From: Squalus acanthias
Taxonomy: Eukaryota
Reading direction: 5' to 3'
DNA length: 64,000 nucleotides
NCBI GenBank assembly: GCA_030390025.1
Contig: JASTWF010000034.1
Coordinates: 2,170,001 to 2,234,000 of the forward strand
Shown: one piece after another, positions 1 to 42,804 of the stretch
Layout of the letters: the number at the start of each line of letters is the position of its first letter
How positions within the stretch are numbered: position 1 is the first letter of the stretch
The notes under the pieces: generated by a model
What the model was told of the DNA's origin: nothing
The model's database searches: none
What the model saw: only the letters and a program-made list of their open reading frames with translations
Program-made: the position numbers and the translations under genes

Positions 1-428
1 CTTATGAGGAAAGAGTGAGGGAGTTGGGGCTTTTCTCTTTAGAGCGGAGGAGGATGAGAGGCGACTTAATAGAGGTTTATAAGATGATGAGGGGGACAGA
101 TAGAGTGGATGTTCAGAGACTATTTCCTCGGGTAGAGGCAGCTGTTACAAGTGGGCATAACTATAAGGTGCATGGGGGGAGATAGAGAAGGGATGTCCGA
201 GGTAGATTCTTTACTCAGAGAGTGGTTGGGGTGTGGAATGGACTGCCTGCTGTGATAGTGGAGTCGGACACTTTAGGAACTTTCAAGCGATAATTGGATA
301 AGCACATGGAGCACACCAGAGTGATAGGGAGTGTGATAGCTTGATCTTGGTCTCGGACAATGCTCGGCACAACATCGAGGGCCGAAGGGCCTGTACTGTG
401 CTGTACTGTTCTATGTTCTATGTTCTAT
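1..428 (+). mobile_element. CR1-type LINE 3' end (ORF2 C-terminus and tail)
   Basis: Translates to YEERVRELGLFSLERRRMRGDLIEVYK...FFTQRVVGVWNGLP; ends in a (CTATGTT)n-type tail. Confidence 0.85.
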
Positions 429-1510
429 AGTTGAATAGCCATTACTGCGTGCAGACATGTGTTTGGCAGAGGTGCCTACCATAGTTGAATAGCCATTACT
501 GTGTGCAGACATGTGTTTGGCAGAGGTGCCTACCATAGTTGAATAGCCATTACTGTGTGAAGACATGTGTTTCGCAGAGGTGCCTATTATAGTTGAATAG
601 CCATTACTGTGTGCAGACATGTGTGTTGGCAGATGTGCCTATGTTAGTTGAATAGCCATTACTGAGTGCAGACATGTGTTTGGCAGATGTGCCTATCTAA
701 GTTGAATAGCCTTTACTGTGTGCAGACATGTGTTTGGCAGAGATGCCTTACATAGTTGAAGAGCCATTACTTTGTGCAGCCATGTGTTTGGCAGATATGC
801 CTATCATAGTTGAATAGCCATTACTGTGTGCAGCCATGTGTTTGGCAGATGTGCCTATTATAGTTGAATAGCCATTACTGTGTGCAGACATGTGTTTGGC
901 AGAGGTGCCTATCATAGTTGAATAGCCATAACTGTGTGCAGACATGTGTTTGGCAGAGGTGCCTATCATAGTTGAATAGCCATTACTGTGTGCAGCCATG
1001 TGTTTGGCAGATGTGCCTATCATAGTTGAATAGCCGTTACTGTGTGCAGCCATGTGTTTGGCAGAGGTGCCTATTATAGTTGAATAGCCATTACTGTGTG
1101 CAGACATGTGCTTGGTAGATTTGCCTCCCATAGTTGAATAGCCATTACTGTGTGCAGACATGTGTTTGGCAGATGTGCCTATTATAGTTGAATAGCCATT
1201 ACTGTGTGCAGACATGTGTTTGGCAGAGGTGCCTATTATAGTTGAATAGCCATTACTGTGTGCAGACATGTGTTTGGCAGAGGTGCCTTACATAGTTGAA
1301 GAGCCATTACTGTGAGCAGCCATGTGTTTGGCAGATATGCCTATCTTAGTTGAATAGCCATTACTATGTGCAGCCATGTGTTTGGCAGATATGCCTCCCA
1401 TAGTTGAATAGCCATTACTGTGTGCAGCCATGTGTTTTCAGATGTGCCTATCATAGTTGAATAGCCAGTGCTGTGTGCAATCATGTGTTTGGCTGATGTA
1501 CCTCCCATAG
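427..1510. repeat. 54-bp minisatellite, ~20 copies
   Basis: Unit ATAGTTGAATAGCCATTACTGTGTGCAGACATGTGTTTGGCAGAGGTGCCTACC; the 18-aa periodicity of ORFs 411-620 and 748-1269 matches. Confidence 0.95.
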
Positions 1511-1515
1511 TATAT

Positions 1516-1858
1516 TTTTATTCGTTTATGGGATGTGGGCTTCGCTGGCATGGCTAGCATTTATTGCCCATCCCTAGTTGCCTTTGAGAAGGTGGTGGTG
1601 AGCTGCCTTCTTGAACCGCTGCAGTCTGTGTGGTGAAGGTACTCCCACATTGCTGTTAAGTAGGGAGTTACAGGATTTCGACCCAGCGATGATGAAGGAT
1701 CGGCAATATACTTCTAAGTCAGAATGGTGTGTGACTTGGAGGGGAACTTGAAGGTGGTGGTGTTCCCATGCGCCTGCCCTTGTCCTTCTAGGTGGAAGAG
1801 GTCGCGGGTTTGGGAGGAGCTGCCGAAGAAGCCTTGGTGAGTTGCTGTAGTGTATCTT
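1516..1858 (-). mobile_element. 3' end of a non-LTR retrotransposon (family B, same as 21311-21700)
   Basis: Reverse complement matches 21360-21700 (...GGGATGGGCAATAAATGC...CCCATGAATGAATAAAAA), which follows the RT ORF at 20265-20801. Confidence 0.8.
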
Positions 1859-2021
1859 GTTGAATAGCGGTTAATCTGTGCAAGGTGTGGGATGTGGATG
1901 TGTGTTTTATGAAATTGCCATAGGTTTGAATGAGTGTTGGGCATTTGGGTTTGTCAACCCTCTGGGCAAAGAGTGAAGTTGAGATGGAGAGATGTGGAGG
2001 TTTGGAAAAGCAGGTACTCAC

Positions 2022-2258
2022 CCTGACCACCCGAGTGAGCTCGTTGAACTTCTTCTGACATTGGGTGTGGGTCCTGGGCACCAGGCCCCTCGAGGAGATG
2101 TGCTGAGCCACCTCCCTCCACACCCATCTAAACTCCCGGGGCAATGGCCTCCTGCACCTCACAGGGAACAACACTGCCCATCGCTTTTCCACAGCGCCAA
2201 CCAGAGCCACCAAAGCCTCGTCGCTCAAGCCCCTAACTCTTTCTCTGGGCCTCTCCAT
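2022..2258 (-). CDS. Myb/SANT-like DNA-binding domain exon (Harbinger Myb / MSANTD-NAIF1-like)
   Basis: MERPRERVRGLSDEALVALVGAVEKRWAVLFP...WREVAQHISSRGLVPRTHTQCQKKFNELTRVVR has the trihelix/Myb_DNA-bind pattern (W..VA, R+..QC.KKF.+L). ATG context is AATAATGG; a GTGAGT donor starts at 2021. Confidence 0.75.
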
Positions 2259-2292
2259 TATTTTGAATTAATAATTGGACATAGATCCTTAC

Positions 2293-2383
2293 TAGGAATG
2301 CCGACAGCAGTGAGGAGGGGATAGTACATATTTTGTATATCATAACATATTCCTAATATCCTAAACACTTCACCCCAATCTAT
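2293..2383 (-). pseudogene. GPR139-like GPCR first exon (copy 1, probably start-less)
   Basis: IDWGEVFRILGICYDIQNMYYPLLTAVGIP, then a phase-1 GTAAGG donor at 2292. Same TM1 motif and intron position as copies 2 and 3 and vertebrate GPR139 (YYSLLLCLGLP/ANIL). In-frame ATA at 2381-2383 where an ATG might be expected. Confidence 0.7.
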
Positions 2384-2459
2384 GCCTTCCCTTCTGTGAG
2401 TGTCTGGTGGTCTTTGTGCTGGGGGCAGCGTGCTGACTGTGTGAGGTGACACAGTGAAG

Positions 2460-2545
2460 GGAGCTCCTTATTTAGAGCAGAGGGAAATCCCCGAGTGACA
2501 TCATTAGGCCTCACTGTAACTGGCATTAATTACAGTCATTGAACA
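2460..2545 (-). promoter_or_regulatory. Putative promoter of GPR139-like copy 1
   Basis: Minus strand TGACTGTAATTAATGCCAGT ... GGGGATTTCCCTC ... CTAAATAAGG, collinear with motifs upstream of copies 2 and 3. Confidence 0.6.
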
Positions 2546-2574
2546 ATCAGACTCATTGAACCATTGTCACCACA

Positions 2575-4380
2575 GCACTTTACTCAACTACCTCCTCTTT
2601 CACTATGACTTTGGCAGCAGCTTCTTCCTTGCTAAAGACAGATGCAAAGTATTCATTTACTATCTCAGCCATGCCCTCTGCCTCCATTCGTATGTCTCCT
2701 TTTTGGCCCTTAATCGGCCGCACCCCTCCTCTTACTGCCCATTTAGTATTTATATGCCAAAAGAAGACTTTTGGATTCCATTTTATGTTAGCTGCCAATC
2801 TATTCTAATACTCTCTCTTTGCCCCTCTTATTTCCTTTTTCACTTCCTCCCTGAACTTTCTATATTCAGCCTGGTTCTCACTTGTATTCTGAACTTGACA
2901 TCTGTCATACGCCCCATTTCTCTGCTTCCTCTTACTCTCTATCTTCCACTATCTCTTTCGTCATCCAGGGAGCTCTGGCTTTGGTTGCCCTACCTTTCCC
3001 CCTCGTGGGAATGTACCTCGATTGTACCTGAATCATCTCTTCTTTAAAGGCAGCCCATTGTTCAATGAGAGTTTTGCCTGCCAGTCTTTGATTCCTTTTA
3101 CCCAAGCCAGCTCGGTTCTCAACCAACTGAAATTGGCCCTCCCCCAATTAAGTATTTTTACTCTAGATTGCTCCTCGTCCTTTTCCATAGCTAATATAAA
3201 CCTCATGATACTACGATCACCGTTCCCTGAATGCTCCCTTACTGAAATCCTCTCCACTTCACCTACCTCATTCCCCAGAACCAGATCCAGCAATGCCTCC
3301 TTCCTCTTTGGGCCAGAAATGCCCCAATCAAGAAAGTTCTCTTGAACTCACTAAGGAAATTCTTTCCCCTCTCTTCCCTTTATACGATTACTATCTCAGT
3401 CTATATTAGGATAACTGAAGTCCCCCATTATTACCACTCTATGGGGTAAAAATTCAGTTGGTTGCGCCTCCCGTTAGCGCCTTAAGAGGGCGCTAATGGG
3501 GCGCAAAGCCGCTAACGCGCGGGCGCAGCGATGTTTGCGCCGCTCGAGAACTTAACTAGACATTGTGCGGCGGCGCTAAAGTTTACCGCTGCGACCGCCT
3601 GCGCGCGCAGATTGTGACGTCATTCCATGGTGCAACGCCCTTGTGGCGCCCCGGAGCGGAAATTGAGTGGCGCCCCCTGCCTTACCGCCTGACGCTAGCA
3701 ACGACAGGTTGAAGGGAGCGTTCTGCAGTCATGAAGGGAAAGGGGGAGCGCTATTTAAAGGTGACCGCTTCCTGCCTTTTATTGTTGGTGGCATTTTTGA
3801 ACTACGCATTCTGAGAGAGAGAGGGAGAGACTTCTGGAGAGATTCAACGTTGTGTGAAGGTGTTTTGGGTACTGAGCAGCACTTTGCAGGTTCATTTTGA
3901 TTTGCCATTCGTTGTATCGATTTAGCAGAGACTGTGGGAGCTGCACTCTGAGCTCTTTGCCTGGTACTCTCCATTGTTCTTTCCTGCACATTTGATGTGC
4001 AAGTCTCTCCAGGCCGAAATTCAAGGCGGCAATGAACAGGATGTGGATGGAAAGCAAGATTAACCATCCCCTTTAAGAGCTGGCCCGTGCCATTGTGTGT
4101 GTGTTCCATTGCTGACTGACATTACATGAGCTTCGCCAGTGCTCTGAGTTAGCGCCTCACTCCTTGGCCTTTGCGCCTTAAGACAGGTGTGCAGCGCCTG
4201 ATTTAGCGCTCCACTCACCTCCCGGGGCGGTAAAAGTGAAGTTTCCAGTCAGTGGCGATAATTAGCGCCAGGCGCTAGGGGCGCAACCTAATTTTTCCCC
4301 CTATATTTCTTCCACCTCTCTGCAATTTCCCTGCAAATTTGCTCCTCTGTTTCCTTCCCACTAGTTGGTGGCCTATAGAA
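2575..4380 (-). mobile_element. Degenerate CR1 ORF2 fragment (endonuclease to linker), split by the MITE at 3443-4301
   Basis: ORFs LDLVLGNE..., APWMTKEI, EIVNEYFASVF; CR1 sequence resumes after 4301 (YRPPTSG on the minus strand). Confidence 0.8.
3443..4301. mobile_element. PIF/Harbinger-type non-autonomous DNA transposon (MITE-like, 859 bp)
   Basis: TIRs GGGGTAAAAATT and (rc) GGGGGAAAAATT, subterminal GTTGCGCC..TAGCGCC, 3-bp TSD TAT at 3440-3442 and 4302-4304; removing it restores the CR1. Confidence 0.8.
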
Positions 4381-4429
4381 GCGTTTTACAGCCAATGATT
4401 CTGCCAGTCCCATTTGCAACATTTAACCT

Positions 4430-4672
4430 CTGCTGCCTTCCACCCTATCACAGACCAACTCTTTTGTTCATTCCTCCCCCCACCCCCCCTTACCCTGCCC
4501 CTACACCTGCTTACAATCTGTTACATCTCTAACTTTTTCCAGTTCTGCCGAAGGGTCACAGACCTGAAACTTTAACTCTGTTTCTCTCTCCACGGATGCT
4601 GCCTGACCTGCTGAGTGTTTCCAGCATTTTTTGTTGTTATTTCAGATTTCCAGCATCCGCAGTATTTTGCTA
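4430..4672 (+). mobile_element. Penelope-like element terminal repeat (degenerate hammerhead motif)
   Basis: AGTTCTGCCGAAGGGTCACAGACCTGAAAC...GATGCTGCCTGACCTGCTGAG; homologous to 40486-40690 and 41540-41640. Confidence 0.6.
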
Positions 4673-4689
4673 TTGTAATGTTTAAGATA

Positions 4690-5123
4690 AAAGAGAAAGA
4701 AAGACTTTCACGACCACCGGACGTCTCGAAGCGTTTTACAGCCAATGAATACTTTTGGAGTGCAGTCACTGTTGTCAGGTGAGAAACGCGGCAGCCAATT
4801 TGCGCACAGCAAGCTCCCACAAACAGCAATGTGATAATGACCAGATTAATAGTTTTTGTTGTGTTGATTGAGCGATAATTATTGGCCAGGACACCAGGGA
4901 TAACTTCACTACTCTTCATCGAACGAGTGCAACGGGATCTTTTACGTCCTGAGAGAGCAGTTTAACATCTCATCCGAAAGACGGCACCTCCAACAGTGCA
5001 GCACTCCCTCAGTACTGCACGGGAGTGTCAGCCTAGATTTATGGGCTCAAGTCCCTGGAGCTTGGGACCAACAACCTCTGACTGAGAGGCTAGTGTGCTA
5101 CCTACTGAGCCACAACTGACACT
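4690..5123 (-). mobile_element. tRNA-headed Deu-domain SINE (SacSINE1-like)
   Basis: Minus-strand head GTGGCTCAGTAGGTAGC (A-box-like), core GTACTGAGGGAGTGCTGCACTGTTGGAGGTGCCGTCTTTCGGATGAG, (CTTT)n tail; second copy at 9927-13085. Confidence 0.75.
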
Positions 5124-5129
5124 GTCAGA

Positions 5130-5440
5130 CGTGTTTACAGAGCATGTGTGTAAACGCACGAAGCGTGGTCAATAAGGTGGGTGATCTGCAGGCGCAAATA
5201 GCCACATAGTAAAATGATGTCGTGACGATAACAGAGTCCTGGCTCAAAAAGGGCAGGATTGGGTACTAAATATACCTGGATATAAGATGTTCGGGAAAGA
5301 TAGGGAAGGAAAGAAAGGAGGTGGATTAGCAGTATTGATTAAGGAGAATATTAGTGCTGGAGAAAGAGGATGTCTTCGAGGGGTCAAGGACAGAATCTGT
5401 TTGGTTAGAGTTAAGAAACAATAGAGGTACCATTACACTG
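5130..5440 (+). mobile_element. CR1 ORF2 5' (endonuclease N-terminal) fragment
   Basis: NARSVVNKVGDLQ...PGYKMFGKDREGKKGGGLAVLIKE...ESVWLELRN. Confidence 0.75.
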
Positions 5441-6195
5441 ATCCCACCTCAATCCAGGAATTTAATTCCCAGAGCCGCCTAGATTACACTGCTCCCACCT
5501 CAGTCCAGGAATGTCATTCCCAGGGCTGCCTAGAATACACTGCTCCCACCTCAGTCCAGGAATTTCATTCCCAGGGCTGCCTAGATTACACTGCTCCCAC
5601 CTCAATCCAGGAATTTCATTCCCAGGACAGCCTGGATTACACTGCTCCCACCTGAATCCAGGAATTTAATTCCCAGGGACAGCCTAGATTACACTGCTCC
5701 CACCTCAGTCCAGGAATTTCATTCCCAGGCACAGCCTAGATTACACTGCTCCCACCTCAATCCAAGAATTTCATTCCCAGGCACAGCCTAGATTACACTG
5801 CTCCCACCTCAGTCCAGGAATTTCATTCCCAGGCACAGCCTAGATTACACTGCTCCTGCCTCAATCCAGGAATTTCATTCCCAGGCACAGCCTAGATTAC
5901 ACTGCTCCCACCTCAATCCAGGAATTTCATTCCCAGGACAGCCCAGATTACACTGCTCCCACCTCAATCCAAGAATTTCATTCCCAGGCACAGCCTAGAT
6001 TACACTGCTCCCACCTCAGTCCAGGAATTTCATTCCCAGGCACAGCCTAGATTACACTGCTCCCACCTCAATCCAAGAATTTCATTCCCAGGCACAGCCT
6101 AGATTACACTGCTCCCACCTCAGTCCAGGAATTTCATTCCCAGGCACAGCCTAGATTACACTGCTCCCACCTCAGTTTAGGAATTTCATTCTCAG
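5433..6195. repeat. 51-52-bp minisatellite, ~14-15 copies
   Basis: Unit CTGCTCCCACCTCAGTCCAGGAATTTCATTCCCAGGCACAGCCTAGATTACA. Confidence 0.95.
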
Positions 6196-6433
6196 TCCAT
6201 TTCTCTTTTGCCTGAAAATGGAAGAAGAAGAAGAGTGACCTTACCCAGACAAACATGTCATCGTGTTTGACCGAGGGGAAGAATAATTAAAAGGAGCAGA
6301 GGATTAAAACGAAGGGATAAAAGGAAAAACACTTAAAATATTAACCAATGAGATAAATACGCTGTAAGCACCTCAATACTCCATGAAACTCTCTGGAAAC
6401 ATTAAATTCTCGCATAATCATACTCACAGAACA

Positions 6434-9200
6434 ATACATAGATACATAGATACATAGAAGATAGGAGCAGGAGTAGGCCATCCGGCCCTTCGAGCCTGCT
6501 CCGCCATTTAATGAGATCATGGCTGATCCTTCAATTCAGTATCCCGTCCCCGCCTTCTCTCCGTAACCCTTAACCCCTTTTGCCTGTAGAAATATATCTA
6601 ATTCCCTCTTAAATATATTTAATGAGCTGGCGTACACTGCCCTCTGTGGCAATGAGTTCCACAGGTTCACCACTCTCTGAGTGAAGAAATTCCCCCTCAT
6701 TTCTGTCCTAAATGGTTTAGCCCTTATCCTTAAATTATGTCCTCTAGTTCTGTTCTCACCCGCCAAGGGAAACATTCCTTCTGCATCTAATCTGTCTAGA
6801 CCTGTCAGAATTTTATACACTTCTATGAGGTCCCCTCTCAATCTTCTAAACTCCAGTGTGTACATCCCTAAACTACATAGTCTCTCCTCATAGGTCAATC
6901 CCGCCATTCCTGGTATCAGCCTGGTGAATCGCCGCTGCACCCCCTCCATGGCAAGAACATCTTTCCTCAGATGAGGCGACCAAAACTGTACACAGTACTC
7001 GAGGTGTGGTCTCACCAGTGCCCTGTACAGCTGCAGCAAGGTATCCCTGTTCCTGTATTCCAACCCTTTTGCTATGAAGGCCAGCATACCGTTTGCCTTC
7101 TTGACCGCCTGTTGCACCTGCATGCTCGCCTTCAGTGACTGGTGTACAAGAACACCCAGGTCTCTCTGTACTTCCCCCTCTCCCAATTTATTGCCATTTA
7201 AATAATAATTTGCCCTCCCGTTCCTGCACCCAAGGTGGATAACTTCGCACTTGTCCACATTATAGTGCATCTGCCATTTATCCGCCCAATCACCCAGTCT
7301 GTCCAAATCGCTCTGGAGCTTCCTGGTCTCCTCCTCTGAGCCCACCCCCCCTCCTAGTTTAGTGTCGTCTGCAAATTTGGAAATGCTGCATTCGACTCCC
7401 TGATCCAGGTCATTAATATAAATTGTGAACAGCTGGGGACCCAGGACAGATCCCTGTGGTACCCCACTTGTTACTGCCTGCCATTCAGAAAATGAGCCGT
7501 TTATTCCAACTCTCTGTTTTCTATCTGACAGCCAGTTCTCTATCCACGTCAATACTTTCCCCTTTATCCCATGAGCTTCAATTTTCCATGCTAATCTTTT
7601 ATGTGGGACCTTATCGAAGGCCTTTTGGAAGTCCAGGTACACCACATCTACTGGCTCTCCCCCATCTATTTTACCAGTTACTCCCTCAAAAAATTCCAAT
7701 AGATTAGTCAAGCACGATTTACCCTTTGTAAATCCATGTTGACTCTGTCCTATCCTGTCCCCATTTGCTAAGTGCTCGGCTATTTCATCCTTAATGATGG
7801 ACTCCAGCATTTTGCCCACAACTGATGTAAGGCTTACAGGTCTGTAATTACCTGCTTTTTCCCTACCCCCCTTTTTGAATAGTGGGGTAACGTTAGCTAC
7901 CCTCCAATCCATGGGCACTGTTCCCGAGTCTAACGAATTCTGAAAAATCATGCTTAGTGCATCCGCTATCTCTAGGGCCACCTCCTTCAGTACCCTAGGA
8001 TGCATGTTATCAGGCCCTGGGGATTTGTCCGCCTTCAATCCCTTTAGCTTCCTTAACACCATATCCTTAGAGATATTGATTTGCGTCAGTTCCTCCTTTG
8101 CCAATGTCCCTATTTTTCCCGATATCCCAGGGAGGTTTTTTGTGTCTTCCTTCGTAAAGACTGACCCAAAGTATGCATTTAGTTGGTCTGCCATTTCCTT
8201 ATTTCCCATTATATATTCCCCCGTATCTGACTGCAATGGACCAACTTTGGTTTTCACCAGTCTTTTCCTCTTGATATACTTATAAAAGCTTTTGGAGTTA
8301 GTTTTTATATTTTCCGCCAGCTTGCTTTCGTAAGCTATTTTGCCCTTCTTGATTAAGCCCTTTGCCCTCCTTTGCTCTATCTTAAACTGTTCCCAATCTT
8401 CCGCTCTGGCGCGTTTTTTGGCTATTTTATACGCCCTATCTTTGGATTTTATGCTGTCTCTAATTTCCCCTGTTATCCACGGTTGAGTCACCTTTTTAGA
8501 TTTCCTTTTATGCCAGATTGGTATAAACAATTTTTGCAATTTTGTCATTCTATCTTTAAATGCTTGCCATTGTTTATCTACCTCCAGTCCTCCCAGGAAC
8601 GTTGTCCAATCAGACCTACTCAGTTCCCGTCTAATGGCATCATAATTCCCCTTGTTTAAATTCAGGACCTGAGTCTCTGAGTCAATTTCTTCGCTCTCCA
8701 TTTCGAGTGAGAAATCGATCATGTTATGATCGCTCTGACCCAAGGGTCCCCGTACAACAAGATTACTAATTAGTCCCTTCTCATTGCACAGTACCCAGTC
8801 CAATATAGCCTGTTCCCGAGTTGGTTCCTCGACATATTGATCCAGATAACCATCCCTTAAACACTCAAGGAATTCCTCCTCCTCATTATTTTTACTGATT
8901 AGGCTAGTCCAATCTATATGTAAGTTAAAGTCACCTATGATGACAGCTGTGCTCTTATTGCACGCTTCTCTAATTTCCCTCGTGATGCCCTCCCCAACCT
9001 CTATTTTACTATTTGGAGGCCTATATACCACTCCTATTAATGTTTTTCGCCCCTCGCTATTTCTTAGCTCCACCCATATAGATTCTGTATTAACTGAGTT
9101 AATATCCTTCCTTTCAATTGCATTTATCCCCTCTTTTACCAGCAATGCTACCCCTCCTCCCTTTCTTTTTTGTCGATCCTTCCTAAATACTGAATACCTG
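6434..9200 (-). mobile_element. Young 5'-truncated CR1 LINE with uninterrupted ORF2 (partial APE endonuclease and complete RT)
   Basis: ORF 6536-9232 (898 aa) with [42 protein letters not shown]; (ATAGATAC)n tail at 6434-6457. Confidence 0.95.
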
Positions 9201-9765
9201 TCAGTCAACATTCTCAAACCCTCCATCACCATTCCAGGGTCTGCACAGACCCGACAGAGGTGGGGACACAGGGGTATACAATCGGGAGGGAGAAACCCTG
9301 CGAGTCCTCAACATTGCCTGAGGAGATAATGAAGTCTGATGGCTTCCAGTCAGACATGGGCAAGGTAACTTCCTGCTGATTACCACCGACCGCCCTCCCT
9401 CAGCTGATGAATCGGCACATCTTGAACACCAGTTGATGGGAGCACCGAGAGCAGAAAGGGCGCAAATTATACTCTGGGTCGGGAGGGGGAAACTTCAATG
9501 TCCATCTCCAAGAGTGGCTCGGAAGTACCATCATTAACCGAGCCCTGAAGAACACAGACTGGGATTGCGGCAGGTGGTGGGAGACCCAAGATGAGAGAAT
9601 AGGCTGCTTGACCTCTTCCTCACCAACCTACTTATCGCATATACATCTGTCCATGACGATATTGGTAGGACTGACCACCGCTCAATGTCTGTGGAGAATA
9701 AGTCTCGCCTTCACCCTGAGGCCACCCTCCATCATATCATGTGCATCTACCATGGTGATCAATGG
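9201..9765 (+). mobile_element. Degenerate non-LTR endonuclease-region fragment (probably family B)
   Basis: Remnants YRPPSADES, GNFNVHLQEWLGS, LDL..T, DH; frameshifted. Confidence 0.5.
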
Positions 9766-9926
9766 AATGAAGTTAGACAGAGTCAAGCGATCCCAACACA
9801 TCAAATTATTTCAAATCTTTCATATCCTGTTGTGAATGGTGATGAACAATTGAGCCGTTTCCCCATAGCCCTGAAAATTTCTCCTTTTCAAGTTTGTATC
9901 CAATTACCTTTTGGAAGTTATAGTTA

Positions 9927-10124
9927 AGAAAGAAAGAAAGAATTGAATTGATACGGCGCTTTTCACGATCTTGGGATGTCCCAAAGCGCTTTCAAGCCAA
10001 TGAAGTACTTTTGAAGTGAAGTCACAGTTGTACCGTAGGAAACGTGCCAGCCAATTTGAGCACTGCAAGCGCCCACAAACAGCAATGTGATAATGACCAG
10101 ATAATCTGCTTTAGTGATGTTGAT
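9927..10124 (-). mobile_element. SacSINE1-like SINE, 3' part (split by a CR1)
   Basis: Matches 4690-4870 (CCCACAAACAGCAATGTGATAATGACCAGAT); (AAGA)n tail. Confidence 0.75.
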
Positions 10125-12882
10125 AGAAACATAGAAAATAGGTACAGTAGTAGCCCATTCGGTCCTTCGAGCCTGCACCGCCATTCAATGCGTTCATGGC
10201 TGAACATGCTACCTCAGTACCCCATTCCTGCTTTCTCAGCATACCCCTTGATCCCCCTAGTTGTGAGTGTTATATCTAACTCCCTTTTGAATATATTTAG
10301 CGAACTGGCCTCAACAACCTTCTGTGGAAGAGAATTCCATAGATTCACCACTCTCTCGGTGAAGAAGTTCCTCCTCATCTCAGTCTTAAATGGCTTCCCC
10401 TTAATCCTTAGACTGTGACCCCTGGTTCTAGTTTTCCCTAACATTGGGAACATTCTGCCCGCATCTAATTTGTCTAAACCAGACAGGATTTTAAATGTCT
10501 CTATAAGATCCCCCCTCATTCTTCTGAACTCCAGAGGATACAAGTTCAGTTGACCCAATCTTTCTTGATATGTCAGTCCGGCCATCCCAGGAATCAATCT
10601 AGTGAACCTTCGCTGCACTCCCTCAATAGCAAGAATGTCCTTCCTTAAGTTAGGAGACCAAAACTGCGCACAATACTCCAGGTGTGGCCTCACCAAGGCC
10701 CTGTACAACTGCAGCATCACCTCCCTACTCCTGTACTCAAATCCCCTTACTATGAAGGCCATCATTCCGTTTGCTTTCTTGACTGCCTGCTGCACTTGCA
10801 TTCCCACCTTCAGTGACTGATGTACCATGACGCCCAGGTCTCGTTGCACCTCCCCTTTCCCTAATCTGCCACCATTCAGGTAATAGTCCGCCTCTCTATT
10901 TTTACCACCAAAGTGGATAACCTCACATTTATCCACATTGTACTTCATCTGCCATACATTTGCCCATTCACCCAACCTGTCCAAGTCACTCTGTAGCCTC
11001 CTAGCATCCTCCTCATTGTTCACACTGCCTCCCAATTTAGTGTCATCCGCAAATTTGGAGATATTACATTTAATCCCTTCGTCCAAATCATTAATATATA
11101 ATGTAAACAGCTGGGGTCCCAGCACCGAACCCTGCGGTACCCCACTGGTCACTGCCTGCCATTCTGAAAAGTACCCATTTACTCCTACTCTTTGTTTCCT
11201 GTGTGCCAACCAGTTCTCAATCCACGTCAACACATTACCCCCAATCCCATGTGCTTTAACTTTGCTCACCAATCTCTTGTGTGGGACCTTGTCGAAGGCC
11301 TTCTGAAAGTCTACTGGTTCCCCCCTGTCCACCCTATTGGAAACATCCTCAAAAAATTCGAGAAGATTTGTCAAGCATGATTTCCCTTTCACAAATCCAT
11401 GCTGACTTGGACCTATCATGTCGCCACTTTCCAAATGGTCTGTTATGACATCTTTAATAATTGCTTCCATCATTTTACCCACGACCGATGTCAGGCTGAC
11501 CGGTCTATAATTCCCTGCTTTCTCCCTCCCTCCTTTTTTAAAAAGAGGGGTTACATTGGCCACCCTCCACTCCATCGGAACTGATCCAGAGTCTAAGGAA
11601 TGTTGGAAAATGATCGTCAATGCAGCCATTATTTCCAAGGCCACCTCCTTAAGTACTCTGGGATGCAGACCATCAGGCCCCGGGGATTTTTCAGCCTTCA
11701 GTCCCATCAATTTCCCCAATACCTTTTCCCGAATAATAAGGATTTCCCTCAGCTCTTCCCTCTTACCAGATTCTCTGACCCCTTTTATTTCCGGCAGGTT
11801 GTGTGTGTCCTCCACAGTAAACACCGAACCAAAGTACTTGTTCAATTGATCCGCCATTTCCTTGTTCCCCATTACGACTTCCCCTGTTTCCGACTGCAGG
11901 GGACCTACGTTTGTTTTTACTAACCTCTTTCTTTTTACATATTTATAGAAGCTTTTGCAGTCCATTTTAATGTTCTCTGCAAGCTTCCTTTCATATTTTA
12001 TTTTCCCTGCCCTAATCAAACCCTTCGTCCTCCTCTGCTGAGTTTTGAAGTTCTCCCAGTCCCCGGGTTTGCTGCTACTTCTGGCCAATTTGTATGCAAC
12101 TTCCTTGGTTTTAATACTATCCCTGATTTCCCCTGTTAGCCATGGTTGAGCCACCTTCCCTTTTTTATTTTTACGCCAGACCGGGATGTACAATTGTTGT
12201 AGTTCATCCATGCGATCTCTAAATGTCTGCCATTGACCTTCCAATGATAGCCCCTTAAATATCGCTTGCCAATTTAACCTCGCCAATTCACGCCTCATAC
12301 CCTCAAAGTTGTCCTTATTTAAGTTCTGGACCATGGTCTCTGACTTAACTGTTTCCTTCTCCATCCTAATGTAGAACTCCACCATACTATGGTCACTCTT
12401 CCCCAGGGGGCCTCGTACCACAAGATTGCTGATTAGTCCTTCCTCATTACACAACACCCAGTCCAGGATGGCCTCCCCTCGAGTTGGTTCCTCAACATAT
12501 TGGTTTAGGAAACCATCCCTTAAACACTCCAGGAAATCTCCTCCACCGTATTGCTTCCAGTTTAAGTAGCCCAATCTATATGCATATTAAAGTCGCCCAT
12601 GATAACTGCCGTGCCTTTTTTGCACGCACCTCTGATTTCCTGTTTCATACCCTCCCCCACCTCACTACTGCTGTTTGGAGGTCTGTACACAACCCCCACT
12701 AACGTTTTCTGCCCTTTGGTGTTCTGCAGCTCAACCCATATTGATTCCACATCCTCCAAGCTGATGTCCTTCCTAGCTATTGCATTAATCTCCTCTTTAA
12801 CCAGCAATGCTATCCCACCCCCTTTTCCTTTTATTCTATCCTTTCTGAATGTTGAATACCCCTGGATGTTCAGTTCCCAGCC
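10125..12882 (-). mobile_element. 5'-truncated CR1 LINE, ORF2 with one frameshift and an RT motif deletion
   Basis: ORFs 12562-12807 and 10214-12574 (786 aa) carry CR1 EN/RT motifs; GEPVDFQKAF lacks 5 residues of VDVVYLDF. Confidence 0.92.
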
Positions 12883-13085
12883 TTGATTGAGATAAATATT
12901 GGCCAGATCATTGGGGTTAACTCTGCTGCTCTTCTTAGATATAATTTCATGGGATCTTTTACGTCCACCTTAGAGAACAGACAGGTTTAACGTCTCATCT
13001 GAGAGACGGCACCTCTGACAGTGTAGTGCTCCCTCAGTACTGCCCTCCCCCCCCCCCAACAATGCAGCACTACCTCAGTACTGGC
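12883..13085 (-). mobile_element. SacSINE1-like SINE, 5'/core part
   Basis: TTGATTGAGATAAATATTGGCCAG...GACGGCACCTCTGACAGTGTAGTGCTCCCTCAGTACTG continues the 9927-10124 piece. Confidence 0.7.
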
Positions 13086-13089
13086 TAGT

Positions 13090-15380
13090 GTGCAGTTTGT
13101 CACGTAGTGCAGCTTGGAACAGAGTGTTGAGCTGCGAGTTTTGTGAGTGAGGGAGTTCGGGGAGGGAGGTGTTCCTTCCTTTTTCTATCTTTGTCAGCTT
13201 CTAGGACCTGGTGAGTATTTCTACAGTCCATCGTTAAAGTAAAAGTAAGGTCTCTAGTTTAGAGTAAGTAGTGTTTAAAGGGAAGTAAGGTCCCTAGTAT
13301 ATTTAATATTCTTTAATTTAAAGGAAGTAAAGGGAGTAAATTAAGGACATGGCAGGGCAGCTCGGCAGCGTGGAGTGCTCCTCCTGTGCTTTTTGGGAAT
13401 TCAGGGACACTTTCAGTGTCCAGGGAGAAAACATGTGCAGGAAGTGTCTCCAGCTGCAGCTACTCGAAATCCGCGATTCGGAGCTGGAGCTGCGACAGGA
13501 GCCACTGTGGACCAGCCGCGAAGCTGAGATCTTCGTGGATAGCACGCTTAACGAGGTGGTCACACCGCAGGTAAAGAGTGCACAGGCAGACAGGAAATGG
13601 GTGACCGCCAGACAGTGTCAAAGAACTAGGATGGTACTGCAGGAGTCCCCTGCGTCCATCTCTCTCTCTAACAGATTTTCCGTTTTGGATACTGATGGGG
13701 GAGAAGGTTTCTCAGGGGAATGCAGCAAGAGCCAAGTCCGAGGCACTACGACTGGCTCAACTGCACAGGCGGGGAGTAAGAGTGGGAGAGCAATAGTGAG
13801 AGGGGATTCTATCGTAAGGGGAACAGATCGATGTTTCTGTGGACGCAGACGTGACTCCAGGATGGTATGTTGCCTCCGTGGTGCCAGGGTCAAGGAGGTC
13901 ACTGAACGGCTGCAGGGCATTCTGAAGCGGGAGGGCGAACTGTCAGAGGTCGTGGTTCACATTGGTACTAACGATATGGGTAGAAAGAGGGATGAGGTCC
14001 TGCAACAAGAATTTAGGGAGCTAGGTAGCAGATTAAAAAGCAGGACTCAAAGGTTATAATCTCTGGATTACTCTCGGTGCCACGTGCTAGTAAGTACAGG
14101 AATAGGAGGATAGAGCAGATGAATGCGTGGCTAAAGAGTTAGTGCAGGAGGGAGGGCTTTAGTTTCCTGGATCACTGGGTCTGCTTCTGGGGAAGGTGGG
14201 ACCTTTACAAGTCGGACGGTTTGCACCTGAACCGAAACGGGGCCAACATCCTTGCGGGGAGGTTTGCTAGTACTGTTGGGAGGGGGGTTTAAACTAACTT
14301 GGCAGGGGGATGGGATACGGAGTGGAGCTATAGTAGGGGTGATGCCCAGGCAAATATAGAGGAAAAAACAAGTCAGCCTGGAAGTCAGAGCAAATATGTA
14401 ACGGCACAAGGGTGTATGGCAAGGCTGGATGGCATTTATTTTAATTCAAGGAGTCTTGCGAGTAAGGCAGATGAATTGAAGGTGTTGATGAACACATGGG
14501 AGTATGATATTGTTGCTATCAGAGAGACATGGTTGAGGGAGGGGCAGGACTGGCAGCTCAATATTCCGGGGTAAAGAATATTCAGGCGAGACAGAGGGGG
14601 GTATAAAAGCGGAGGGGGTGTCGCAATATTAATCAAGGAGTCAATTACAGTACTGCTGTAAGGAGGGATGATATCTTAGCAGGTTTCTCTAAGGAGGCCA
14701 TATGGGTAGAACTTAAAAACAAAAAGTGGGCAAGCACCTTGCTGGGAGTGTACTATAGGGCCGCAAACAGTCATTGGGAGATAGAGGAACAGATATGTAG
14801 GCAAATCTCAGCGAAGTGTCGAAATAATAGGGTAATAATAGTAGGGGATTTCAACTTCCCCAATATTAACTGAGATAGTCAGAGTGTGAAAGGCTTAGAG
14901 GATGCGGAATTCTTAAAGTGGATCCAGGAGAGCTTTTTGAGCCAGCATGTAGAATGTTCGACAAGTGAGGGGGCGGTACTGGACCTAATTCTAGGGAATG
15001 TAGCTGGGCAACTGGTGGAAGTGTCATAAGGAGAGCATTTTGGTGACAGTGACCATAATTCATTGAGATTTAAGGTAGTCATGGAAAAGGACAAAGATTG
15101 ACGGGAAATAAAGATTCTAAATTGGGGGAATGTCGATTTTAATATGATAAGGCAGGACCCGGCCAAAGTGGATTGTATCAGCTACTTGTAGGAAAATCCA
15201 CATCAGAGCAGTGGCAGTCTTTCAGAAAGTAAATAGAGAGAGTATAACGCCAACATGTTCCCGTAAGGGTCAAGTGTGGGACCATCAAGCCCAGGGAAAC
15301 CTGTATGTCAAGTGATATACAAGAATGGATTAGGAAAAAAAGAGAGGTTTTTGGCAGATACAAAGGAGTAAAAACAGTGG
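13090..15380 (+). mobile_element. CR1 5' half: 5' UTR, ORF1 (zinc finger and SGNH esterase), start of ORF2; degenerate
   Basis: ORF 13349-14059 has CSSC..CRKC and GDS...HIGTND; then FNSRSL..K, ETWL, YRAAN, GDFN with stops and frameshifts. Confidence 0.88.
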
Positions 15381-17500
15381 AAATAGAGCTTTCCAGCTTA
15401 ATCCCACTTTCCAGCTTTTGGTCCGTAGCCCTGTAGGTGATGGCACTTCAAGTGCATATCCATGTACGTTTTAAACGTGTTGAGGGTTTCTGCCTCTACC
15501 ACCCTTTCAGGCCTTGAGTTTCAGTCCCGCAACGACCTCTGGGTGAAAAAAATTCTCATCTCCCGTCTAATCCTTCTACCATTTACTTTAAATCTATGCT
15601 CCTTGGTTATTGAACTCATGCCAGGGGAAATAGGTGCTTGCTATCCACTCTATCTAGGCCCCTCATAATTTTATACATCTCAATTAAATCTCCCCTCAGC
15701 CTCCTCTGTTCCAAAGTAAAGAACCCCAGACTATTCTCCAGTCTTGGCAACATCCACGTAAATCTCCTCTATAATGTCTCAAATGCAATCACATCTTTCC
15801 TGTAATGTTTTGACCAAAATTGTACGCAGTATTCTAGCTGTGGCCTAATTGGTGTTTTATACAGTTCTAGCATAAACTCCCTGTTTTTATATTATATGCT
15901 TCGGCTAATAATGCAATGTATCCCACATGCCTTTTTAACTTCCCTATCTACATGTCCTGCTAGTTTTAGAGATATGTGGAAATGTACTCCAAGGTCCCTC
16001 TGTTCCACTGCACCTCTCAGTGTCCTGCCATTTATTGTGTATTCCCTTTTTTTTGGCCCGCCACAAATGCATTACCTCACACTTCTCCGAAATGAAGTCC
16101 ATTTGCCACTGTTCTGCCCACCGGACCAGTCCATTGATATCTTCTTGCAGTCTACAGCTTTCTTCCTCACTATCAACCACACGGCCAAATTTTGTATCAT
16201 GTGCAAACTTCTTCATCATGGCCCCAACACTGAAGTCTAAATCATTAATATATACCACAATTAGCAGGGGACCTAGTACTGAGCCCTGTGGAACCTCGCT
16301 CGGAACAACCTTCCACTCACAAAGAACACCCGTTGACCATTACGACCTTTGCTTCCTGCCACTGAGCCAATTTTGGATCCAACTTGCCACCTTCCCTTGG
16401 ATCCAATGACCAACCTGTCATGTGGGACCTTGTCAAAGGCCTTTCTAATATCTATGTGGACTACATCAAATGCACTCCCCTCATCGACCGTCCTCATTAC
16501 CTCCTCAAAAAATTCAATCCAGTTAGTCAGACACGACCTTCCCTTAACATTACCATGCTGACTGCCCTTGATTAATCTGTGCCTTTCTAAATGCCGATTT
16601 ATACTGCCGCTCAGAATCTTTCAATATTTTATCCACTACCAAGGTTAGACTGACTGCCCTGCAATTACTCGGTCTATCCCTTTCTCCCTTTTTAAACAAT
16701 GGTACAACGTTAGCAGTCCTCCAGTCCTCTGGCATCACGCCTGTAGCCAGAGAGGATTGGAAAATGATGGTCTGAGCCTCCGCTATTTCCTCCTCTGCCT
16801 CTCGTAAAAGCCTGGGATACATTTCATCCGAGCCTCGTGATTTATCTAATTTCAAAGATGCTAAACCCCTTAATGTTTCCTCTCTCACTATGTTTGTCTC
16901 ATCTAATATTCCACACTCCTCCTCCTTCACTACAATATCTGCATCGTCTCACTCTTCTGTGAAGACAGACACAAAGTATTTATTAAGAACCATGTCCACG
17001 TCTTCCGCCTCTACACACAGATTCACTGTTTGGTCTACAATAGGCCAGACTCTTTCCTTAGTTATCCTCTTGCTCTTGATGTATGTATAAAACATCTTTG
17101 GGTTTTCCTTGCCAATATTTTTCCATGCCCTCTCTTTGCTTTCCTAATACTCCTTTTTAATTTCACCCCTGCACTTTCTATACCCCTCTAGGCTTTCTGT
17201 AGTATTGAGCTCTCGGTATCTGACAAAAGCTTCCCTTTTTGTTCCCTTATCCTACCCTGTATTCCCCTTGACAACTAGGGGACTCTAGATTTGGAAGTCC
17301 CATCCTTTATGTTTTTGGGAATATATTTGCTCTGAGCCCTCACTATCTCCTCGTTGAACGCTTCCCATGGCTCTGCACTGATTTCCAATTAAGAAGCTGT
17401 TTCCAGTCCACTTTTCCTAAATCACATCTCAGCTTAGTAAATTGGGCCTTTCCCCAATTGAAAACTTTTAAACCTGGTCTTTCTTTGTCCTTTTCCATTA
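15381..17500 (-). mobile_element. Degenerate CR1 ORF2 fragment
   Basis: KSRGSDEMYPRLL, DWRTANVVPLFKKG, KAFDKVPH, KFAHDTK in broken frames. Confidence 0.85.
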
Positions 17501-17865
17501 GGGGAGATTTAATATAGATATTCCAGATTGTAATGGGTTTTGATAGAGTAAGTAAGTCGGTTTCCAGAGGCAGAATGATGGGTAACCAGAGGAAACACAT
17601 TTAAAGTAATTGGCAGAAGAACCAGAGGAGAGATGAGAATTTTCTTTACGCAGTGACTTTTGATCTAGAATGCACTGACTGAGAACGTGGTGGAAGCAGA
17701 TTCAATAGTAAATTTCGAAAAGGAATGGGGTAATTAGATGAAGGGGAATTTTTATGGGGCTCTGATTAAAGAGTAGGACTGAATAAATAACTCTTTCAAA
17801 GAGACGGCATGGACACGATGGGCCGAATGCCCTCCGTCTGTGATGTACCGTTCAATGATTCTATT
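17500..17865 (+). mobile_element. CR1 3' end fragment
   Basis: RGDLI..., FFTQ-like remnants and a GGGCCGAATG...CTGT tail. Confidence 0.65.
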
Positions 17866-18074
17866 AGCAAGAGACAGAGAGAGAGAGAAGAGGGAGAGAG
17901 AAGAGGGGGAGAGAGAGAGAAAGGGAGAAATAGAGAAATAAAAATAGAGACTGAAAGACAGGGAGAGTTACAGAGGGAAATAAATTAACTTTAAAAGGGG
18001 AATTGGATAAATACCTGAAGGGGAACAATTTGCAGAACTATGGGAAAAGAGCAAGGGAATGGGACTAATTGAAG

Positions 18075-18565
18075 GGGTGAGGCCATGGTGGGATTTGAAC
18101 ATGAGGAGGAGAATATTTAAATCGAGTTGTTGCCGGATCGGCAGCCAATGTTGGTCAGTGAGCACAGGGGTGATGGGTGAACGGGACATGATGTGTGTTA
18201 GGATATGGGCAGCAGAGTTTTGGATGAGCTCTAGTTTACGGAGCCTTGTTACTGGGAGGCCGGCCAGGAGAGTATTGGAATAGTCGAGTCTGGATTTAAC
18301 AAAGGCACGGATGAGGGTTTATGCAGCGGAAGGGCTGAGGTGGAGCGGAGATGGGTGAAATTTTGGAAGTGGCAGTCGGCAGGACTGGTGATTCAGAAGA
18401 TATGAGTTCGGAACTCAGCTCAGGGACAAAGAGATCGCAGAGGTTGCAAACAGCCTGGTTCAGCCTCAGACATTGACCAGGGAGGGGGACTGAATCGGTA
18501 GATAGAGAATGGAGTTTGTGACTAGGACCGAAGACAATGGCTTCGCTCTTCCCAAGATTTAAATG
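18075..18565 (-). mobile_element. L2-type LINE RT C-terminal fragment
   Basis: RLDYSNTLLAGLP...IQNSAA...SPITPVL...HWLP on the minus strand; homologous to 51914-52420. Confidence 0.75.
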
Positions 18566-18808
18566 ACAAACAGTAATTCAGTGAAACGTGGTTTACGGAC
18601 CCAATATCTGGATATAGAGACTGACCAAGGACACTAACAGCAGCAAAGAATGAAGAATAGTAATACAGTTAGCAAAGGTTTGCAGAGTTAATAGCTGGAT
18701 AGAGAGATTTACCTGGAACAACAACTGCAGCAAGGAGGGGAGAGTAAATTACAAGAACAGTAATACAGTAAAACATGGTTAACAGAATAGCTGGATAGAG
18801 AGACTTAC

Positions 18809-19031
18809 CAGGCACACCAACAGCAGCTAGGAGTGGATAGTAAATGTATTGAATAATCAGAAGTGCCAAATAGATCCGATAGTCTAATGACATTGTATCA
18901 TAATTTTCTGAAAGATCGTCAACCTGCCAGCTGAAACTCCTGCCCATTGTTGTAGCATTCCAATCTACTGTTCTCAGATTCTGATCCATTGTTGTAACAT
19001 TCCAATCTACTGTTCTCAGATTCCGACCCAT
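18809..19031 (-). CDS. GPR139-like GPCR first coding exon (copy 2)
   Basis: MGRNLRTVDWNVTT-MDQNLRTVDWNATT-MGRSFSWQVDDLSENYDTMSLDYRIYLALLIIQYIYYPLLAAVGVP, 223 nt (phase 1), GTAAGT donor at 18808; TM1 motif and intron position match vertebrate GPR139. Confidence 0.8.
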
Positions 19032-19159
19032 TGTTTTAAAATTCCAATCTACTGTTCCATGATTCCGACTCCCTCTCTATGTGCCGAGCAGCGCGCTGAT
19101 CACTGTCAGTGCCGGAGGTGATGCTCTCACTGACACTATGGGATAACACATTGAAAGGA

Positions 19160-19312
19160 GTCCCTTTTTAATAGAAGAGGGAAACCCTGCACTGATACAA
19201 TTAGAGTCCATGGAGACTGACATTAATTACAGTCACTAAACAAACATCTTCAGTTAACCCGTGGAGACTGACATTAATTACAGTCACTGAACAAACAGCT
19301 TCAGTTAACCCC
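19160..19312 (-). promoter_or_regulatory. Putative promoter of GPR139-like copy 2
   Basis: TATTAAAAA (19165-19173), GGGTTTCCC (19179-19187), two 51-bp tandem units each containing GACTGTAATTAATGTCAGTC. Confidence 0.6.
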
Positions 19313-19339
19313 TTTCAATCCAACAGTTTTTGAACCACA

Positions 19340-19940
19340 GTAAAGTAGAGCATTTACCCGGTCCGGATGGGAAGTATGAGGGTTGCTGAAGGAAGGAATG
19401 GTGGAAATAGCGCAGGCTCTGAACAGAATATTTCAATCTCCTCGGATATGGGAGTGGTGCCAGAGGACAGGAGGGTTGCAAATGTTACACCCTTTTAAAA
19501 AAGGAGAGGGGGATAAACCCTGTAACTGCAGGCCAGTCAGACTAACGTCATTGGTGGGGGAAACTTCTAGAGGCCATATTCACAGAGAAAAGTATCTGTC
19601 TTTGGAAAAAACATGGATTAATAAATGACAACCAGCATGGATATGTTCACAGCAAAGTGTGTCTGACAAACTTGATTAAGTTCTTTGATGAAGTAACGGA
19701 GAGGGTTGATGAGGGTAGTGCGGTTGATGTTGTGTATATGGACATTCAAAATGCATTTGATGAAGTACAATTGAATAGACTTGATAGGACCAAAGGGACA
19801 GTGGCAGTGGGGATCTGACACTGGCTAAGGGACAGAAAACCGAAAGTAGTGGTGAACGGTTGTTGTACAGACTGGAGGGAAGTGTACAATTGTGTCCCCC
19901 AGTGGTCGCTATTCGGACCACTGCTCTTTTTGATATACAT
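19340..19940 (+). mobile_element. Degenerate CR1 RT fragment
   Basis: PGPDG, FKKG..DKPCNCRPV.LTS, VDVVYMDIQNAF remnants. Confidence 0.7.
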
Positions 19941-20019
19941 ACATATATACATACACATACACATACACATTTATATATACATACATTTACACACACACAG
20001 AGGAGGACATAGACAGACA

Positions 20020-21700
20020 GGTGAAATGAGCAAAGTGATAAAAGGTGCCGTCGACAGTGCTATTATGTGGCACTTACTCACTAATAACCTTCTCACTGAT
20101 GCCCAGTTTGAGTTCCGCCAGGACCACTCGGCTCCAGACCTCATTACAGCCTTGGTACAAACATGGACAAAGGAGCTGAATTTCAGTGGTGAGGTGAGAG
20201 TGACTGCCCTTGACATCAAGGCAGCATTGGACTAAGTGCGGCATCAAGGAGCCCCAGTAAAATTGTGTCAATGGAAAGCAGGGGGAAAACTCTCCACTGG
20301 CTCGAGTCATACCCGGCACAACGGAAGATGGTTGTGGTTTTTGGAGGTCAATCATCACAGCCCCAGGACATCGCTGCAGCAGTACATCAGGGCAGTGTCC
20401 TCGGCCCAACCATCTTCAGCTATTTCATCAATGACCTTCCCTCCATCCTATGGTCAGAAGTGGGAATGTTCGCTGATGAGTGCTCAGTATTCAGTTCTAT
20501 TCACAACTCCTCAGATAATGCAGCAGTCCATGCCCGCATGCAGCAAGACCTGGATGATATTCAGCCTTGGGTTGATAAGTGGCAAGTAATAATCACACCA
20601 AACAAGTGCCAGCCAATGACAATCTCCAACAAGCGCCACATCCCCTTGACATTCAATGGGATTACCATCGCCAAATCCGTCACCATCAGTATCCTGGGGG
20701 TTTCCATTGACCAGAACCTTAACTGGACCAGCCACATAAATACTGTGGCTAAAAGAGCAGGTCAAGGCTGGGTATTCTGCGGCGAGTTTCTCGCCTGCTG
20801 ACTCCCCAAATCCTTTCCACCATCTACAAGGCACAAGTCAGGAGTGTGATGGAATACTCTCCACTTGTCTGGATGAGTGCAGCTCCAACAACACTCAAGA
20901 AGCTCGACATCATCCAGGACAAAGCAGGCCACTTAATTGGTAGCCCATCCATCACCATAAAGGGGTAGAGAGGGTGGTAAAAAGGGAGGGGGTCGCGGTA
21001 TTGATTAAATAATCTATTACAGCTGTGAGGAGAGATGATATGTTGGAGGGATCATCAAACGAGGCCATATGGGTCGAATGGAAAAACAAAAAAGGGGCGA
21101 CCACACTGCTGGGAATGTACTATAGACCCCCAAACAGTGAGAGGGAGATAGAAGAGCAAATATGTCGACACATTTCTGAGAATTGCAAAAACCATAGGGC
21201 AGTATTAGTAGGAGATTTGAACTACCCCAATATTAACTGGGATAAGCTGGGTTCGTTTTCCTTGGAACAGAGGAGGCCTGCTCCTGCTCCTATTTCTTAT
21301 GTTATGTTCTTAAACATTCACTCCCTCCACCACCGGCGCACCGTGGCTGCAGTGTTTACCATCTACAAGATGCACTGCAGCAACTTGCCAAGGTTTCTTC
21401 GGCAGTACCTCCCAAACATGCAGCCTCTACCACCTAGAAGGACAAGGGCAGCAGGAGCATGGGAACACCATCACCTGTAACTTCCCCACCAAGTCACACA
21501 CCATCCTGACTTGGAAGTATATCACCATTCCTTCATTGTCGCTGGGTCAAAATCCTGCAACTCCCTCCATAACAGCACTGTGGGAGCGCCTTTCCATCAC
21601 CGACTGCAGCGGTTCACCACCACCTTCTCAAGTGCAACTAGGGATGGGCAATAAATGCAAGGCGTGCCAGCGATGACCACAGCCCATGAATGAATAAAAA
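20020..21700 (+). mobile_element. Family B non-LTR retrotransposon RT and 3' end, interrupted by CR1 pieces (~20960-21310)
   Basis: QFEFRQDHSA, ALDIKAA, QGSVLGPTIFSYFINDLP, MFADEC; resumes at TAAACATTCACTCC (21311) and ends ATGAATAAAAAA. Confidence 0.8.
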
Positions 21701-21759
21701 AGAAAAACAAAATAGATGGCAGATGAAATTCCATAAATTGCATAGATTTTAGAACGTTT

Positions 21760-42645: not shown

Positions 42646-42804
42646 GTCAGGACAGGTATGTATACATTATTCAATAGAATACTCTGGTTGACAGAATTCT
42701 TTCATTATTAAGCCAGAATAACTTGGGGTTATGTTAGGTTAAACCACACTTCAGACAGAAGGGTATGAAGGTTAAAGAAGCAGGTAATGAACATTCCTGT
42801 GTGG

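Follow-up and report, generated by a model that had tools for sequence, protein, structure and literature searches.

A putative first-exon capture in a subfamily of shark GPR139-like receptor genes

How can two first exons of the same receptor family stand on the same strand with no second exon between them? This question is raised by a 64,000-nucleotide (nt) stretch of the 3.7 Gb genome of Squalus acanthias (contig JASTWF010000034.1, positions 2,170,001 to 2,234,000; G000:C2671:2170001-2234000), hereafter called the window. Two GPR139-like first exons, copy 1 (2293-2383) and copy 2 (18809-19031), were located on its minus strand, each with a promoter and a phase-1 donor, as the original prediction made from the sequence of the window had described. 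That prediction favored a copy 2 that was not an orphan and would splice across copy 1, and proposed that the two exons might be alternative cassettes on a shared constant exon, as in protocadherin or UGT1 clusters. Our analysis agrees with the first part and disagrees with the second. Copy 2 is probably the selected first exon of a one-protein chimeric receptor gene, spliced over a 25.6-kb intron, and copy 1 a fossil lying inside that intron.

Two first exons and a distant exon 2

Copy 2, whose type we name the B exon, is an intact coding exon 1 of 223 nt (74 codons plus 1 nt), in keeping with the intactness of its family and with the ratio of nonsynonymous to synonymous substitution rates (omega). 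It ends at the donor G/GTAAGT at 18808 (the slash marks the exon end). It contains 42-nt repeats that code for two N-glycosylation sequons, as well as a hypervariable segment and the initial half of transmembrane helix 1 (TM1). The sequon-encoding repeat lies at 18943-19069, and its copy number differs among paralogues and among the proteins of other sharks. The promoter and 5' leader of copy 2 (19032-19312, minus strand), for which position and conservation suggest promoter function, contain a 51-bp duplication (19211-19311). In the leader, an out-of-frame ATG at 19060 starts a three-codon upstream open reading frame (ORF; 19052-19060, minus strand), which is missing from copy 3, the B exon of the neighboring unit described below.

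Copy 1, whose type we name the A exon, is 91 nt long and appears from the decay of its family to be a relic of an older gene. Its first codon is ATA instead of ATG, the rest of its frame is open, and its donor is A/GTAAGG at 2292. Its promoter and 5' leader (2384-2573, minus strand) are homologous to those of copy 2, with 70-84% identity across the aligned pieces. Both exons stop one base past the Pro codon of G-V/I-P, that is, in phase 1.

No match to exon 2 was found between copy 1 and copy 2 or elsewhere in the 64-kb window, which confirms that the window lacks an exon for TM2-TM7. The interval between the copies holds a 52-bp tandem array (5432-6195) and two long ORFs (6536-9307 and 10214-12586), which we take from their sequence to belong to a long interspersed nuclear element (LINE) with a reverse transcriptase-like product. 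Just past the copy-1 donor, an ORF fragment (1788-2267, minus strand) looks similar to a Myb/SANT-like DNA-transposon protein; it is common to A copies and is also found alone elsewhere.

Exon 2 was found 6,774 nt to the left of the window, at C2671:2163227-2162326. It has a phase-1 acceptor in phase with both donors and begins N-L-V-T-I-V-I-L, matching the phase-1 start.NL..IVIL that had been expected on that side. The exon is open for 299 codons past the split codon and matches the Pfam domain 7tm_1 (E 3e-19). The intron leading to it would be 9,065 nt long if spliced from copy 1 and 25,581 nt if spliced from copy 2. The latter runs from the copy-2 donor to the acceptor at C2671:2163228, and its predicted part within the window covers 1-18808 (minus strand). 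There is no assembly gap across the span from copy 2 through copy 1 to exon 2, and the sole exon 2 that copy 2 can reach without a gap lies beyond copy 1. Copy 2 would therefore have to splice across copy 1, as proposed originally; joined to exon 2, it would give a predicted receptor of 374 residues.

Genes of the family have two coding exons, and the intron between them is in phase 1 and interrupts TM1. In sequencing run X8, from another organism and guessed to be RNA, one contig joins an exon-1 end at the acceptor, with a G before the junction as in B; this supports the two-exon structure of the family and not that of the window locus. No join at the window locus was seen when four guessed-RNA runs were compared with exon 2 (24 of 69 loose ends shown), nor at copy 1 in two guessed-RNA and two DNA-like runs (24 of 227 loose ends shown); all these contigs come from other organisms, and with only part of the loose ends shown the comparison is uninformative on expression.

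Recurrence of the layout and selection on its parts

The order B, A, exon 2 recurs through a subfamily of about 110 predicted shark GPR139-like genes. First, a contiguous survey of 464 kb around the window contained five B exons, three whole A exons, one A-promoter fragment and five exons 2, and a second survey of ~164 kb near 5.8 Mb, with three gaps within, contained three of each. Second, exact start motifs were matched genome-wide by 108 B exons, 43 A exons with ATG and 30 with ATA; these counts are lower bounds, and 3 of the 43 ATG A exons are on large chromosomes and were not checked. Third, a B exon on the same strand and within 45 kb was found upstream of 43 of the 76 listed A exons and downstream of 4. 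Among the 33 listed A exons without a listed upstream B, upstream sequence was fetched for 8 and revealed five intact B exons missed by the motif and three gaps. On C2450 and C2561, members that are more distant show this order too.

A local misassembly that removed an exon 2 from between the copies had been named as a possible objection. The scaffold does contain a gap (26906-27405, the only run of N in the window), and some pairs of B exons elsewhere span gaps. However, copy 2, copy 1 and exon 2 follow one another without a gap, and because the layout is inherited and is found again at dozens of diverged loci spread over many contigs, misassembly is very unlikely; we give it practically no weight.

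Departures from the full layout were also observed. A is absent from the units at C2671:2348322 and on C295 and is reduced to a promoter fragment at C2671:2470082. The two units without A (C2671:2348322 and C295:88260) have an intact B and an intact exon 2. The exon 2 at C2671:2441645-2443642 is interrupted by a 2-kb insertion with LINE-like ends, and the B exon of that unit is still intact. At C977:34736-37456, the exon ahead of an intact exon 2 is of A type and carries an in-frame poly-proline insertion; the 26 kb upstream contain no B. At C3318:40861-43745, a damaged A lies 2 kb upstream of an intact B and another A follows, which again gives stacked heads. Stacked heads at C218 and at C2671:1.72-1.78 Mb are only apparent, as both span gaps, and the order B, B, A, exon 2 at C2671:5.77-5.90 Mb was no longer read as a nested insertion on account of three scaffold gaps there.

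Selection was compared between 40 B copies, taken from the top hits of two DNA searches and from contiguous regions, and 64 A copies. An initial A sample of 26, collected by similarity or position, included 22 with ATA and was skewed to the copy in the window; 38 copies were then added through the ATG motif, which favors intact copies. One frameshifted copy of each type was left out of the omega estimates (n = 39 and 63), and stops in A were masked. Almost all B copies (39 of 40) have an open frame and a GT donor, and Y-P...G-x-P is retained in 38. Their omega was 0.059 over codons 32-46, in TM1 (twice the log-likelihood difference, 2dlnL, from omega = 1 was 72), and 2.83 over codons 7-31, in the N-terminus (2dlnL 19). 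The B exon is under purifying selection in TM1 and under diversifying selection in the N-terminus.

The A exon presented the opposite picture. Its start codon is ATG in 41 copies, ATA in 22 and AGA in one, so that 23 of the 64 lack ATG; a stop is present in 11, and the GT donor is missing in five. Although 30 of 64 combine ATG, no stop and GT, only eight also have Y-P...G-x-P. Omega was 0.88 for A as a whole, 1.17 for its TM1 part and 0.83 for the 30 copies with ATG and without a stop, all indistinguishable from 1 (2dlnL no greater than 0.4). In the 40 units having both A and exon 2, which were used for the relative-rate comparison, the rate of the A exon is 1.22-1.26 times the mean, similar to the fourfold sites of exon 2 (1.18-1.33). 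A evolves neutrally, and the relic is copy 1, not copy 2. Seven of the eight fully intact A copies have an upstream B and the eighth adjoins a gap; thus, this subfamily yielded no example of A serving alone.

These data bear directly on the converse possibility, that copy 1 is the working exon 1, started at the near-cognate ATA or at an in-frame ATG 12 codons before the donor, and that copy 2 is an orphan. Copy 1 is indeed nearest to exon 2 (9,065-nt intron) and has an open frame and an intact donor. However, the purifying and diversifying selection on B would be unexpected for an orphan, the internal Met is not conserved across A copies, and units lacking A keep an intact B, together with an intact exon 2 at C2671:2348322 and C295:88260. 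We therefore consider a working copy 1 very improbable. That copy 2 is no orphan, as first argued from its signature of selection, is borne out by its intactness, its selection and the inheritance of the layout (upstream B at 43 of 76 A exons against 4 downstream).

Exon 2 itself is intact in 20 of 24 full-length copies. Among these 20, the ratio of nonsynonymous to synonymous differences per site (pN/pS) reached 5.6 and 3.6 within aligned codons 121-160, and was 0.11-0.27 in codons 1-40, 201-220 and 261-280. Exon 2 is not constant: it is duplicated with every unit and is diversifying. Since exon 2 diversifies too, each unit carries diversity in both of its exons, which is the pattern of a birth-and-death family.

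These observations leave little room for a protocadherin- or UGT1-like array, in which many selected first exons would share one constant exon. Two same-phase promoter-exon modules upstream of one exon 2 are what such an array would offer. However, no more than two B exons per exon 2 occur in all fetched sequence, A is neutral, and exon 2 is copied with each unit and has the elevated pN/pS given above. The original prediction had proposed to count exon 1 against exon 2; functional first exons proved to stand 1:1 with exon 2 over the two contiguous surveys (8:8; 5:5 in the 464 kb and 3:3 in the ~164 kb), against its cassettes. A genome-wide ratio based on motifs was abandoned because the patterns differ in breadth (541 versus 1,981 matches family-wide); two subfamily exon-2 patterns gave 228 and 220 matches, which include other subfamilies. 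The ratio of B to exon 2 and the selection contrast largely refute the array model, which now has scarcely a chance of being correct.

Origin of the arrangement and surroundings of the locus

If copy 2 is the first exon and copy 1 a fossil, a B-type and an A-type two-exon gene might originally have stood in tandem. Deletion or unequal crossover would have deprived the B gene of its own exon 2, leaving the B promoter and exon 1 to adopt the acceptor of the A gene. Skipping A should require nothing special: by splicing logic, and not by an acceptor search, an exon that used to be first lacks an acceptor. The fused unit would then have been copied about 110 times, and across the copies B and exon 2 would have diversified at extracellular segments, while A lost starts, gained stops and was sometimes deleted.

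Several observations favor this scenario. Intact genes on C7 consist of an A-type promoter (86-89% like that of copy 1), an A-type exon with ATG and an A/GT donor, and exon 2, and no B exon was found in the gap-free 26 kb between two such genes standing head to head. A C7 gene could be aligned at 78-83% identity, over promoter, exon, whole intron and the start of exon 2, with the stretch from A to exon 2 of a full unit (B, A, exon 2) on C2561. Because intact A-only genes are collinear with the A-intron-exon 2 part of the units, B likely captured an older A-type gene. Units with B only share the spacer found between B and A in full units, which points to a secondary loss of A. In DNA-like runs X19 and X21, from two other organisms, the first codon of A-like exons is ATG in 17 and 5 contigs, respectively, at all or nearly all of the depth. 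Moreover, gene models of three other shark genera join long repeat-bearing B-type N-termini to the closest relatives of this exon 2, so that the B type of exon is old and did not arise locally. The marks of a capture were found: the downstream part exists complete elsewhere, the displaced part decays while the head is under selection, and the chimera has been amplified. One genome would thus still contain both the fossil exon and the parental gene type in unfused form.

Some points weigh against this reading. We infer the B splice at the window locus from the DNA, having seen no transcript of the locus or of the subfamily from this organism. ATG is retained in 41 of the 64 fetched A exons, and exact motifs gave ~40 ATG against 30 ATA copies genome-wide. 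The 29-codon test of A is compatible with weak constraint on this exon and cannot exclude it. Defects of A are often shared by descent (one stop in seven copies, another in four), so that independent losses of A are fewer than the counts. The A promoter (2384-2573 in the window) has a relative rate of 0.75-0.80, compared with 0.93-1.02 for introns, in the 40 units; a slower promoter is a weak hint of a retained role. A seemingly strong conservation of this promoter (diversity of 0.05 versus 0.17) had shrunk to that rate after badly aligned stretches were masked. Finally, a protein tree of exon 2 (111 rows, with 73 of 120 homologues kept and those without a recognizable exon-1 end excluded), built by a quick search and midpoint-rooted, has weak support and does not polarize the order of events.

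The slower promoter would also suit a related explanation, a gene with two promoters, in which B would provide the main receptor with a long N-terminus, the A promoter would fire in some copies to give an isoform with a short N-terminus or a regulatory transcript, and a few loci would feed one exon 2 from two B exons. Alternative first exons would then be genuine here, though on a small scale. In favor of this explanation, both donors fit the phase of the acceptor; ATG, an open frame and a GT donor persist together in 30 of 64 A copies; and one locus, on C1120, has the expected double head. On the other hand, omega is 0.83 even among ATG-bearing stop-free A copies, A is deleted in several units, copy 1 in the window lacks ATG, and the promoter signal is weak, with medians near intron values. 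Among 113 listed B exons, five same-strand pairs lie within 50 kb of each other; the pair on C1725 has a listed exon 2 between its members, that on C625 has a listed A and exon-2 matches between them, two pairs span gaps, and only C1120 is clean. We regard the two-promoter gene as unlikely.

At C1120:197790-239973, two intact B exons (197790 and 211425) lie 13.6 kb apart and differ at 25 of 138 nt. They are followed by a stop-bearing A and by one intact exon 2 at 239066, with no assembly gap. The capture accident may have recurred at this locus, or the gene may truly have two heads; for the latter the locus is the best candidate, and it keeps a small version of the variable-exon idea alive. 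If RNA came from both heads at loci like this one, they would represent a rare coding variable-exon arrangement in a class A G protein-coupled receptor (GPCR) family. A broader and rather speculative proposal, to which we assign a low probability, is that head swapping is a working route of diversification, in which an upstream gene loses its exon 2 time and again, so that two selected first exons remain on one body, and the A promoter continues to drive or tune expression. Some loci would then represent nascent GPCR genes of the variable-exon kind, with alternative ligand-facing N-termini on one seven-helix body.

The capture of an A-type gene by a B head, which we prefer, has practical consequences. 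Gene models that use the nearest exon 1 would be wrong for the whole subfamily of about 110 genes, and the subfamily would be a natural experiment on the decay of a displaced exon and its promoter over many duplicates.

Other features of the window surround this locus. Just inside the predicted intron, the 3' end of exon 1 recurs at 18608-18749 (minus strand) as two degenerate copies in tandem, which have donor-like ends. Such copies, also present at 59766-59907 (plus strand), trail the B donor in most units; behind copy 2 the first of them is in frame and could serve as a minor alternative donor, adding a second hydrophobic stretch. Copy 3 (59527-59707, plus strand) is the B-type exon 1 of a neighboring unit facing the opposite way, whose A exon, with ATG, lies at C2671:2247110 and whose intact exon 2 lies at ~2255170, both to the right of the window. 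An inverted duplication with 93-97% identity relates 15380-23420 to 55199-62966, and the copy-3 unit points away rightward. A 28-bp satellite (23418-31589) reverses its orientation across the 500-N gap at 26906-27405, where the scaffold join may be doubtful. Broken frames at 42245-42677 (plus strand) are presumably C2H2 zinc finger-like.

Comparison with known systems

With its 7tm_1 domain and its high identity to annotated shark proteins, exon 2 belongs to the shark 'GPR139-like' class A receptor family. The closest relatives of the gene are shark proteins automatically named 'probable G-protein coupled receptor 139' (Heptranchias, Heterodontus and Pristiophorus); of 120 hits listed, 119 are 74-82% identical to it along exon 2. 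These proteins likewise have both long repeat-bearing and short N-termini, as seen in protein records, which carry no gene structure. A literature search, with supplements outside its scope, found no paper on the gene structure or exon layout of this shark family, and the words exon, shark and expansion are absent from PMC12208981. Among solved structures, the best match of exon 2 was human GPR139 (PDB 7vug and 9m42; residues 2-283, E 4.8e-8). This value is near that of unrelated class A receptors (8e-8 for the PAF receptor), and human GPR139 is therefore a distant relative at best. Unlike the single-copy, highly conserved GPR139 orthologues, with which no tree was built, one exon-2 motif of the shark family has 1,981 exact matches in this genome, against 2 for the reversed control.

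In the UGT1A locus, several modules of promoter plus first exon lie upstream of shared exons, with many functional variable exons and single constant exons. In the clustered protocadherins, one of many functional variable exons is spliced to constant exons by promoter choice (PMC8787164). The shark units resemble the protocadherin alpha and gamma clusters (PMC8787164) and UGT1A in having more than one same-phase promoter-first-exon module upstream of a shared exon, with an upstream exon predicted to be spliced past a downstream one. However, three defining features of a variable-first-exon cluster failed in the shark units. One of the two first exons is decaying, with 8 of 64 A copies fully intact; each unit owns an exon 2, which is diversifying, whereas the constant exons there are single; and B stands to exon 2 as 8:8, not as many functional first exons to one, with one clean 2:1 locus on C1120.

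First-exon capture in rodents provides a closer working analogy than the protocadherins. In the vomeronasal formyl peptide receptor genes Fpr-rs3/4/6/7 and Fpr-rs1, a coding exon came to lie behind the first exon of an unrelated V1R or V2R gene, and the tissue of expression changed (PMC7873101). As in that account, a promoter and first exon would have captured the coding exon of another receptor gene in a birth-and-death cluster, the displaced part would have become a pseudogene, and the chimera would have been amplified (PMC7873101). In contrast with the rodent case as described there, the shark partners are paralogues, the captured head is coding (the N-terminus and half of TM1), the displaced piece is an old exon 1, and no change of expression is known. 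Therefore, a tempting protocadherin-like claim gives way here to what appears to be a clean exon capture within a very large and little-studied family of shark receptors.

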